In this document: positions 57,100-58,730 of the stretch, one piece after another
Position numbering within the stretch: position 1 is the stretch's first letter
Layout of the letters: each line of letters begins with the position of its first letter
Source of the DNA: Escherichia phage RCIP0319
Direction: 5' to 3' (one strand)
Sequence record: PV464738.1
DNA: 64,000 nt
The notes under the pieces: generated by a model
What the model was told of the DNA's origin: nothing
The model's database searches: none
Seen by the model: the letters and a program-made list of their open reading frames with translations, nothing else
Program-made: the position numbers and the translations under genes

Positions 57100-57239
57100 A
57101 ATAAACTCCTACTTTGGGAGCGGCGTTAACGACCTATTCGCTAACTCATCCCGTCCCGATATGAGTACATTATAATATAGTGTAGGAAAAAGTAAAGCAC
57201 TTTTTCGATAAAAATGCGATAAATTATTTTATCTTTTTC

Positions 57240-57267
57240 TTTACTTCTTCGTACACTCGCGTATACT
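57240..57267 (+). promoter_or_regulatory. sigma70-like promoter for first island gene
   Basis: TTTACT, 16-bp spacer, TATACT; 19-bp block CTTTACTTCTTCGTACACT identical to 57646-57664. Confidence 0.4.
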
Positions 57268-57323
57268 TGTTTATATCGAGACGGGCGATGGCCCTTTCTT
57301 CTACTATCATCGGGAGCTTTATT

Positions 57324-57635
57324 ATGACTACTTTAATCTCTTCTATCCTTACTTACGACGAAGACCGCTTAACCGTTCGCTCTCTTATCGCCGCCGTTAA
57401 CGCGGAGCTCGAAAATAGCATTATTAAAGCGCGCGCCGTCGCCTTCGTCGGCCTTTCCTTCGACGATATTAAGTATGCAGAGTATAGCGCCATTCGCGCC
57501 ATTCGCGTCGTTACTACCGACGATAACGCCGTTGCCCTTATCGAGACGGTTACGCCGCGCGGCGAAGCGTTAATCATCGTCGAGTATATCGACGTAGAAG
57601 GCGATAAAGCTTATAAATATTTTATCGCAGAATAA
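57324..57635 (+). CDS. small protein (103 aa), atypical codon usage
   Basis: ATG after RBS GGGAG (track start 57267 lies in the promoter); codons almost free of TG/CA dinucleotides, CpG-rich. Confidence 0.4.
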   Translation: MTTLISSILTYDEDRLTVRSLIAAVNAELENSIIKARAVAFVGLSFDDIKYAEYSAIRAIRVVTTDDNAVALIETVTPRGEALIIVEYIDVEGDKAYKYFIAE

Positions 57636-57646
57636 CGAAAAAGCGC

Positions 57647-57675
57647 TTTACTTCTTCGTACACTAAGACTATGAT
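57647..57675 (+). promoter_or_regulatory. sigma70-like promoter for second island gene
   Basis: TTTACT, 17-bp spacer, TATGAT; followed by TTTTATATCGAGAGGGG as in the first copy. Confidence 0.4.
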
Positions 57676-57742
57676 GTTTTATATCGAGAGGGGATGAGGT
57701 AGCGAATAGGTCGCTACCCTCCCGACTAACTAGGAGAATATT

Positions 57743-58033
57743 ATGATTACTTTATCCGCTATCCGCGCCGCTCGCGTCGGAACTTCCGAAAACTCTAACG
57801 TATTTGGCGAAACCTTAGAGAGCGTTTATCGCTCTAAAGTCGACGCGATTATCGAGTCTATTTATGAGCCGATCAACTTCCTCGACCTTTACAAATATCG
57901 CGACGAGGACATCGTATCCTACCGCGTAACGATTAACGGCTTCGTCTATACGATTACCGAAATCGGCGGCGAATATATCGCTGTACCGCAACTCGGCGGC
58001 GAAGTGACTTATTTTAAAATCGTCTCCTTATAA
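57743..58033 (+). CDS. small protein (96 aa), atypical codon usage
   Basis: RBS AGGAG; same compositional signature as the 57324 gene. Confidence 0.4.
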   Translation: MITLSAIRAARVGTSENSNVFGETLESVYRSKVDAIIESIYEPINFLDLYKYRDEDIVSYRVTINGFVYTITEIGGEYIAVPQLGGEVTYFKIVSL

Positions 58034-58052
58034 TACCCTTCCGTTACTAATA

Positions 58053-58079
58053 GGCCGCGCTTAGTCGCGGCTTTTCTTC
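58053..58079 (+). terminator. rho-independent terminator
   Basis: GCCGCG-CTTAGT-CGCGGC hairpin followed by TTTTCTT. Confidence 0.5.
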
Positions 58080-58550
58080 GTCCCTATCCCGATGCGCGTC
58101 CTACGCGAAAACTCCTTTATCCTTCCCTTCGTCGTCGCATAATCTTCTTCTAGATGCGCCTTAGTTCGCATAACGGGTATTACGTTAAATGGAGAACATC
58201 GCGTAAATCCTTGTTTTATATAGACACCTATATCGGACCGTTAGGGAGGGTCGCGCAAGTCGTTGTTTTATAAAGGCGCAAAACTTTCCCTTCGTTCCGA
58301 ACTAAAACGAGAAATATGCCGACCCTTCGCCCGAAAATAGTACGCATGCGAAATTACATGCATCTAGAATAATCCCCACCGATATTATCCTACACGTAAT
58401 CATTAGCTTTCGAATCATTATGATTCATATTATTATGCGTTGAATCATTCGCTTTCGAATTGTAACGCTGGAAACTGTAACGGCAATTGATTATTGCGTT
58501 CGTGTGGTTTTTAGGGCATGGGTCTTTTGGTGCGTTTTGGTGCTTGATGA

Positions 58551-58661
58551 AATTTGCAGTACACTAATCAAATACGACACATTTAGTCCACTAACTTTTC
58601 AAAGAAAAAGTCCTAGACAGTACCGTACTATTTTGTGCCCACAGTAAATTTGCAGTACACT
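58551..58661. repeat. two copies of 15-mer AATTTGCAGTACACT in ORF-free region
   Basis: 58551-58565 and 58647-58661, same orientation; shares AATTTGCA core with the iteron array. Confidence 0.5.
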
Positions 58662-58730
58662 CCTGCGCGGCAGGCAAAAGAAAGGGCCGCCACAGCGACC
58701 CACGATTCACGGTTAAATCAGCAACACCCA

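Follow-up and report, generated by a model that had tools for sequence, protein, structure and literature searches.

Modules of early genes within the terminal repeat of a phage genome are a known kind of arrangement. In SPO1 of Bacillus, the terminal redundancy holds the host-takeover module, whose small genes all have strong early promoters and ribosome-binding sites of their own; the DNA of SPO1 is fully substituted with hydroxymethyluracil, and we know of no dinucleotide purge reported for it. In T5, the DNA enters the cell in two steps, and only those EcoRI or CRISPR targets that lie in the first-step-transfer (FST) DNA are hit (10.1101/866236). Here we analyze a stretch of 64,000 nucleotides from Escherichia phage RCIP0319 (record PV464738.1; the whole stretch is called the window, and all positions refer to it unless stated otherwise), in which positions 57100-58730 hold two small genes, P1 and P2, their promoters, and DNA free of open reading frames (ORFs). 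We show the anatomy of the module to which these genes belong, its location in the direct terminal repeat (DTR), the depletion of the dinucleotide step CA:TG from its DNA (the purge), the conservation of this purge, and the selection that still acts on it. Whereas the kind of module is known, the loss of a dinucleotide step maintained by selection is new as far as we could find: in our literature search, we met with no account of an entire dinucleotide step being lost locally under selection, with effects down to protein composition.

The likeness to the FST region of T5 extends to several features. Both lie in a long direct terminal repeat, both have host-type promoters diverging from the middle and many small genes, and in both a rightward unit ends in a terminator, after which a conserved, repeat-rich non-coding stretch continues to the inner end of the repeat; restriction resistance without known DNA modification is common to the two as well. 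In contrast, the DTR measures 3.3 kb here and 10 kb in T5, searches of family and structure databases found no homologue of A1, A2 or dmp (the T5 proteins were not compared directly), and two-step DNA entry, which in T5 depends on the synthesis of pre-early proteins, would be a prediction for the phage described here. In the T5 terminal repeat (L016 1-10219), the relative abundance (rho) of CpG is mostly 1.3-1.5, with a dip to ~1.0-1.1 at 6-8 kb, and it is 0.5-1.0 in the next 20 kb. SPO1 shares the array of small genes with early promoters in the terminal repeat but differs in its host and promoter type and has no sequence similarity to this locus. Restriction-site avoidance and the Ocr protein of T7 offer a further parallel, namely selection against nuclease targets before protection is in place and small acidic proteins that would be made first. 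However, known avoidance in phages concerns specific 4-6-bp words or strand orientation and is genome-wide, whereas here a whole step is lost from a 2-kb segment; as for DNA mimicry of the Ocr/ArdA type, P1 and P2 gave no family match and are only moderately acidic (isoelectric point [pI] 4.5). Finally, the morons of temperate phages are likewise small genes with their own promoter and terminator, but the module described here is conserved across its genus, has normal G+C content, and belongs to a virulent phage, in whose terminal repeat it is located.

Loss of the CA:TG step

The first-pass annotation had described the two genes as compositionally unlike the rest of the window. This is borne out by the dinucleotide statistics: using every other 1.2-kb window as the control, rho(TG,CA) is 0.30 in 57100-58300, compared with 1.19±0.07 (minimum 1.04) elsewhere. 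CG and TA are raised in exchange (rho 2.18 vs 1.10 and 1.37 vs 0.67, respectively), while the other 12 dinucleotides are unchanged and the G+C content of the zone equals that of the genome. At the codon level, neither gene uses CTG or TGG, as had been noticed; of the reported richness in CGC and TCG, the first part stands, CGC being the only Arg codon, whereas TCG is abundant as a trinucleotide but never occurs as an in-frame codon in either gene. The anomaly is much stronger than first described, and the box originally drawn around it was too narrow, since the depletion spans ~56100-58350 and includes the minus-strand gene g208. On the left, the purge fades as a gradient through g208; its right edge is sharp and lies ~180 bp before the end of the DTR.

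The purge is strand-symmetric (CA 22, TG 22) and also affects non-coding DNA, as in the 224 bp that separate the divergent promoters, which contain 11 TG/CA. At codon junctions, TG or CA occurs in 6 of 103 positions in P1, compared with ~24% in the tail-fibre gene. Since codon junctions and spacers are depleted alike, the purge is a property of the nucleic acid and not of tRNA or codon choice, so that selection at the tRNA or codon level is ruled out. All 8 trinucleotide classes that contain CA:TG are depleted, CAG/CTG the most (0.07 of expectation) and ATG/CAT the least (0.54). The effect extends to protein composition: Gln, His, Cys, Trp and internal Met are all missing from P1, and P2 has none of these except a single Gln. 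Further candidate causes were rejected. A cause at the RNA level, such as avoidance of start codons or of mRNA-interferase sites (e.g., ACA), does not fit because the sense strand has lost UG and CA to the same extent; thymidine hypermodification does not fit because the thymidylate synthase is ThyX and not a ThyA-like hydroxymethylase; the enrichment of H-NS sites is only modest (6 vs 1.8±1.4 per 1.25 kb); and CA:TG is not the cheapest step to lose, as the genetic code shows that AG:CT could be removed at the cost of no amino acid.

Position within the terminal repeat

Compared with sequence records, positions 56400-59200 match 28 Wifcevirus-type phages (myophages of E. coli or Shigella with genomes of ~68 kb) at 91-95% identity, and by these matches the window comes from a Wifcevirus-type E. 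coli myophage. The limits of the DTR were mapped from two relatives. Ro157lw has been deposited with both copies of the repeat, and on alignment its left copy starts at window position 55211 and its right copy ends at 58527; the repeat predicted by PhageTerm for Mansfield (positions 1-3673 of that record) gives the same limits. For WFC and WFH, a terminal repeat of ~3.7 kb has been described (Korf et al. 2019). With these ends, 57100-58730 lies in the right half of the DTR, and the ORF-free part straddles its right boundary.

Conservation and selection

The trough in TG and CA is present in 13 of the 13 other Wifcevirus loci examined, and the purge extends to cassette genes absent from this phage (Mansfield_005, WFH_004, Ro157lw_007, and a 153-nt gene in AV128). 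P1 and P2 contain 69 and 99 biallelic sites, respectively, yet TG+CA remains steady at 17-45 per kb, compared with ~150 in the flanks. Within the zone, polymorphisms that create TG or CA are scarce, both among transitions (33 vs 52.8 expected, p 2e-4) and among transversions (7 vs 23, p 2e-5); this deficit was not found in the flanks or in g208.

Searching 1.84 billion representatives with a hidden Markov model of the P2 alignment yielded two genuine distant homologues, P0036 and P0037; a match to a repetitive protein of 1117 aa in the same search was discarded as a repeat artefact. The contigs that carry homologues (L017, L018 and L019) are syntenic with the module. In L017 and L019, protein identity is too low for word-based searches, though the 19-bp promoter block of the module is kept, exactly in L017 and with 1 mismatch in L019. 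All three contigs are purged, and more strongly than RCIP0319; in L017 (rho 0.02-0.07), 1-3 TG/CA per 400 bp are left, essentially the start codons and the promoter block. The Serratia phage Hera (Myosmarvirus) has a purged zone as well (rho 0.16-0.37), with a g208 homologue and two small acidic genes. Outside Wifcevirus, the purged zones occupy 8000-9800 in Hera (L024), 5200-7200 in L017, and 1400-3300 in L019, each with a g208 homologue and small acidic genes, and the module of Hera is inverted relative to the small terminase gene (TerS). In the Pbunavirus BrSP1, an orthologue of g208 (36% identity, E 2e-30) lies beside a TerS homologue; neither BrSP1 nor Aeromonas phage Gekk3-15 shows the purge.

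The purge is thus conserved over at least two genera (Wifcevirus and Myosmarvirus) and an uncultured lineage. Because it is conserved in distant relatives, common to two genera and still under selection, it is an old selected trait of the enterobacterial branch and not an import. Two elements of the earlier picture of a foreign moron island give way here: P1 and P2 are present in 28 of 28 Wifcevirus records and not sporadic, and the composition is not foreign, the G+C content being that of the genome and the signature being the loss of a single step under ongoing selection. Around P1 and P2, the gene content varies. In most relatives, a minus-strand P2 paralogue (Mansfield_005/WFH_004 type) is located between g208 and P1; RCIP0319 has none at this place (57099-57324). 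Other isolates have extra cassettes, namely a 210-nt gene after P2 (Ro157lw, Eco4M-7) and the 153-nt gene of AV128 between P1 and P2. By this comparison, the zone is a site of cassette turnover. One of these relatives, vB_Eco4M-7, has been assembled synthetically (PMC11074155).

Organization of the module

Both ORFs first proposed for P1 and P2 are real (Table 1). Three promoter-leader cassettes point divergently, from 57100-57320 and from 57646-57742, and the leftward one serves g208. The proposal of two promoters sharing a 19-bp block holds, with exact copies of CTTTACTTCTTCGTACACT at 57239 and 57646, and the minus strand has a third copy with 2 mismatches at 57197-57179 (chance expectation, 0.01 copies). 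A sigma70-like promoter had been proposed for each of the two genes, and the hexamers are there (TTTACT-16/17-TATACT/TATGAT); all three copies of the block overlap predicted promoters of this type, with TTTACT, a spacer of 16-17 nt, and TATACT, TATGAT or TATAAT. The promoter and leader of g208 form an inverted repeat of 36+33 nt with the P2 cassette. All three leaders begin with ATATCGRGA and have a 5'-proximal predicted hairpin that leaves the Shine-Dalgarno site free. The terminator 3' of the second gene (58052-58073) is likewise confirmed. In an exact scan of viral contigs beyond Wifcevirus, the promoter block gave one extra match that we treated as chance, a single unrelated sequence present 3 times, without a -10 element and without the purge.

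Table 1 Features of the terminal repeat and the module in the window.
Feature	Position	Strand	Remarks
Direct terminal repeat	55211..58527	.	3317 bp; from both copies in Ro157lw and PhageTerm prediction for Mansfield
TerS gene	55571..56044	+	Inside DTR, outside purged zone; PDB 7uxe 'Small terminase', E 1e-31; phrog_4783; annotated in Mansfield
CA:TG-depleted zone	56100..58350	.	Core 57000-58300
g208	56473..57099	-	Conserved basic protein, phrog_4730; leftward gene of module; partly purged
g208 promoter and 5' leader	57100..57196	-	TTTACT-16-TATAAT, 57196-57169; leader with stem-loop and Shine-Dalgarno site
P1 promoter-leader cassette	57239..57323	+	Block 57239-57257; TTTACT-16-TATACT, 57240-57267; leader hairpin
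P1	57324..57635	+	103-aa acidic ORFan, pI 4.5
P2 promoter-leader cassette	57646..57742	+	Block 57646-57664; TTTACT-17-TATGAT, 57647-57675; leader hairpin 57698-57718
P2	57743..58033	+	96-aa acidic ORFan, pI 4.55; member of small paralogous family
Intrinsic terminator of rightward unit	58052..58083	+	Annotated also in Mansfield and WFH
Conserved non-coding DNA within purged zone	58145..58372	.	Inverted repeat 58145-58171/58346-58372
Last ~145 bp of DTR	58382..58527	.	Normal TG/CA content; physical right end 58527
Two copies of AAATTTGCAGTACACT	58550-58565, 58646-58661	+	Just outside DTR; not in purged module

P1 and P2 gave no match in Pfam, PHROG or NCBIfam and chance-level matches only among PDB sequences, and their homologues occur only in the Wifcevirus-like lineage. 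The ratio of nonsynonymous to synonymous substitution rates is 0.29 for P1 and 0.36 for P2, compared with 0.07 for g208 (TerS and g208 range over 0.04-0.07); both small genes are under purifying but relaxed selection. Profile comparison revealed no similarity between P1 and P2. The P2 paralogue Mansfield_005 is 33% identical to P2 (E 4e-5), and because such a paralogue is present in most relatives, the zone harbours a small family that is diversifying. Models built with AlphaFold2 from shallow alignments are unreliable (pLDDT 52 for P1 and 50 for P2). In RCIP0319, P1 contains a 9-bp tandem duplication at 57485-57502 (GCCATTCGC twice, adding Ala-Ile-Arg) that is absent from 20 of 20 aligned homologues.

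Restriction sites and plating phenotypes

Type III restriction enzymes require two inverted sites. Wifceviruses resist EcoKI, EcoCFT_I, EcoRI, EcoRV and EcoCFT_II without known protection (Humolli et al., PMC11990801), in the case of EcoRI despite 38 sites, both orientations counted, while they are very sensitive to EcoP1, although genome-wide site numbers are similar for the two type III systems (PMC11990801). With CACAG taken as the EcoCFT_II site, our counts in two genomes (92 and 58) reproduce the published ones, which identifies the site; for AGACC, the site of EcoP1, and for EcoRI and EcoRV, the counts likewise agree. Within the DTR of the window, there are no EcoRI, EcoRV, EcoKI, EcoAI-type or CACAG sites, and no other 3.3-kb stretch of the window is free of CACAG (mean 5.1). 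AGACC, in contrast, has 4 sites in the DTR, in both orientations. Bas98 and Bas99 have 5-6 AGACC and at most one CACAG in the locus stretch examined, which spans the DTR, the CACAG of Bas99 being at the far right edge. The site counts of the DTR agree with published plating for 6 of 6 systems, as a correlation only; the pattern would be that of T5.

The loss of one step also narrows the vocabulary of the DNA more broadly. Of the 512 possible 5-mers, the zone contains 357, compared with 426±9 in control windows, and the L017 zone contains 289. From a hand-compiled panel of 56 enterobacterial restriction motifs, 12 match the zone, as opposed to 18.0±2.5 in controls.

A proposed early module with few nuclease targets, and rival explanations

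Our preferred reading, which we put forward tentatively and with confidence somewhat short of even, is that this is a pre-early ('immediate-early') DTR module resembling that of T5, the DNA of which has been selected to contain few nuclease targets. Three promoter-leader cassettes would be fired divergently by the host RNA polymerase, leftward into g208 and rightward into P1 and P2 up to the intrinsic terminator, from which conserved non-coding repeats continue to the physical end of the repeat. Like the FST DNA of T5, the module would be in the cell and transcribed before phage protection is in place. Selection would then minimize targets for DNA-cutting enzymes in genes and spacers alike; with one step lost, every recognition site containing CA:TG is gone. 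The selection on the module is strong enough to have stripped His, Cys, Trp, internal Met, and all but one Gln from P1 and P2. These two proteins and their paralogues would likely be early anti-restriction or host-takeover effectors, and an anti-defence or host-takeover role of the small genes is a plausible hypothesis. In a more specific form, which we hold a little more loosely still, the first-expressed 2 kb would be a 'reduced-vocabulary' DNA that does without CA:TG at the expense of five amino acids and survives cutting before the rest of the genome is protected, with either host restriction generally or a host-degrading nuclease of the phage itself as the cutting activity. On this view, a broad anti-restriction mechanism against type I, II and III enzymes would be encoded in the module too, and P1, P2, the paralogues and g208 would be the candidate proteins for a new and broad function in anti-restriction or host takeover. 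The reading bears on a question about T5 that is 50 years old, the survival of the first-entering phage DNA, and rho in sliding windows provides a simple scan rule for other phage genomes.

In favour of this reading are the location in the DTR, the three cassettes with the block kept in distant relatives, the extent and conservation of the purge, the polymorphism data, the smaller set of words and restriction motifs in the zone, the published plating phenotypes, and the precedent of T5. Several points weigh against it. The early timing, the end that enters first, the selective agent, and the roles of the proteins are all what we infer. The FST DNA of T5 has no CA:TG purge, only raised CG, and contains CACAG and AGACC sites. 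Neither P1 nor P2 detectably resembles any anti-restriction protein, and the models of both are unreliable. Within the DTR itself, the last 180 bp and the leftmost 900 bp are unpurged, as are the AGACC sites, and the link to the phenotypes rests on six systems, of which only the comparison of CACAG with AGACC is statistically informative. In addition, four-mer palindromes number 99 in the zone compared with ~73, an absolute increase that arises because CA:TG has been replaced by the self-complementary steps CG and TA and that is not favoured by avoidance of type II sites alone. Since AG:CT could be removed without losing any amino acid, generic avoidance leaves the choice of CA:TG unexplained.

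It is on this last point that a different source of cutting would do better. In T5, Davison is said to have raised an 'A1 restriction-enzyme' idea, and by analogy, an early phage-induced nuclease requiring CA:TG sites could destroy the host DNA, so that the first-in segment must be free of such sites. A dedicated enzyme would account for the choice of CA:TG over the cheaper AG:CT, and the near-total absence of the step in L017 implies a high cost per site, which one step-specific agent fits better than diffuse avoidance; for the near-absolute L017 purge, a single CA:TG-dependent agent fits at least as well as our preferred reading. How T5 DNA escapes A1 is itself still open (10.1101/866236), and Wifceviruses are reported to be extremely fast replicators (PMC11990801). 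However, no recognizable nuclease is encoded in the module or the DTR according to Pfam, PHROG, NCBIfam and PDB searches, degradation of host DNA by Wifceviruses is not documented in the literature found, and the rest of the genome, in which CA:TG is normal, would need other protection. We know of no nuclease with specificity for the CA:TG step and consider this explanation unlikely.

Explanations that dispense with cutting altogether fare worse. The start site of the E. coli DnaG primase is CTG, and CAG/CTG is the most depleted trinucleotide; the zone sits in a repeat that has to pair when concatemers form, primases are encoded by the phage itself, and the total of pyrimidine-purine steps does not change (sum of the four rho values 4.14 vs 4.13). 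Avoidance of primase starts, or a physical property of the DNA that serves concatemers, packaging or ejection, is nevertheless improbable, as all 8 CA:TG trinucleotide classes are depleted and not one, the extreme ends of the repeat, which would be the first to become single-stranded, are unpurged, and Pbunavirus relatives with the same replication genes have no purge. A regional mutation bias, for example CA/TG transition hypermutation linked to heavy transcription or single-stranded exposure, would explain why the steps that take the place of CA:TG are precisely CG and TA, the two products of transition, and why there is a gradient away from the divergent promoters. Yet in coding DNA transitions are simply the synonymous route, no process is known that combines C-to-T and A-to-G changes confined to the CA context, the purge is strand-symmetric regardless of the direction of transcription, TG/CA-creating transversions are scarce too, and the promoter block retains its CA across deep divergence, all of which makes such a bias very improbable. 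Least probable, and largely refuted in the form given by the first-pass annotation, is a horizontally acquired, foreign moron island with anti-defence cargo and possibly a non-coding RNA. The genes do have their own promoters and a terminator, neighbouring cassettes are gained and lost between isolates, and for 58074-58380, the predicted fold of the plus strand is somewhat better than that of shuffled sequences (z -2.7). However, P1 and P2 are found in every Wifcevirus record with homologues restricted to the lineage, the G+C content is unchanged, the signature reaches non-coding DNA and the core gene g208, the minus strand of the same stretch gives z 0.07, and a covariance-model scan of 54600-59300 with Rfam returned no match down to E = 1. 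Being still selected and common to two genera, the signature is not that of an unameliorated import.

DNA to the right of the terminator

In the ~650 bp described as ORF-free (58061-58730), ORFs indeed do not exceed 49 aa, and the 16-mer AAATTTGCAGTACACT is repeated as proposed, with copies at 58550 and 58646. The enrichment in short palindromes that had been suggested for this part disappears when shuffles that preserve dinucleotides serve as the control (z -0.5 and -0.6). The -10/start part of the promoter recurs in two degenerate copies, at 58199-58223 and 58251-58275, a 20-mer at 58322-58341 is identical in L019, and iteron-like repeats of GAATCATT/TTCGAAT occupy 58382-58460, the motifs being repeated likewise in L017 and L019. 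This DNA is 93-100% conserved within the genus and has the iteron motifs and the 20-mer in common with the distant L017 and L019. It is best seen as cis-acting boundary DNA, with a putative role in packaging, end protection or entry control, together with decayed promoter cassettes, and it is possible that it also gives a transcript.

Other elements around the ends of the repeat

A strongly G+T-rich island with the Chi-like words GTGGTGGG and TGTGGTGG occupies 54780-55110 (GC skew +0.40 over 54001-55000), just outside the left DTR boundary, which in the virion is just inside the right-hand copy of the repeat, in an orientation readable by RecBCD entering from the right end. The equivalent island of Hera (L024 7400-8000) adjoins the purged zone and has an exact Chi on the other strand. 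DnaA boxes are a feature of the non-coding injection-stop region at the inner end of the T5 repeat; the DTR of this phage contains none with at most 1 mismatch, and just two occur nearby, at 54755 and 54914, to the left of its boundary. Within the left portion of the DTR (55547-56444), the motif (A/G)ATTTGCACTAT(G/A) occurs in 5-6 copies, all on the plus strand, one of which provides the start codon of TerS; the motif is kept in the distant relative L017 (5160-5215), where it flanks a hairpin, and may serve as a promoter specific to the phage or as a site for protein binding. The heptamer GTACACT is found in directly oriented pairs at 55064 and 55127 (84-147 bp outside the left DTR boundary) and at 58559 and 58655 (32-128 bp beyond the right boundary). 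The window has seven copies in all, six of them grouped around the DTR, and the spacer of the early promoters contains this heptamer too. An 18-nt inverted pair, ATTTAACGTATTATCCGT/ACGGGTATTACGTTAAAT, is located at 55270-55287 and 58173-58190, with one arm 59 bp inside the left end of the DTR and the other ~340 bp inside its right end, and the ATTACGTTAAAT core of this pair is also present in L019.

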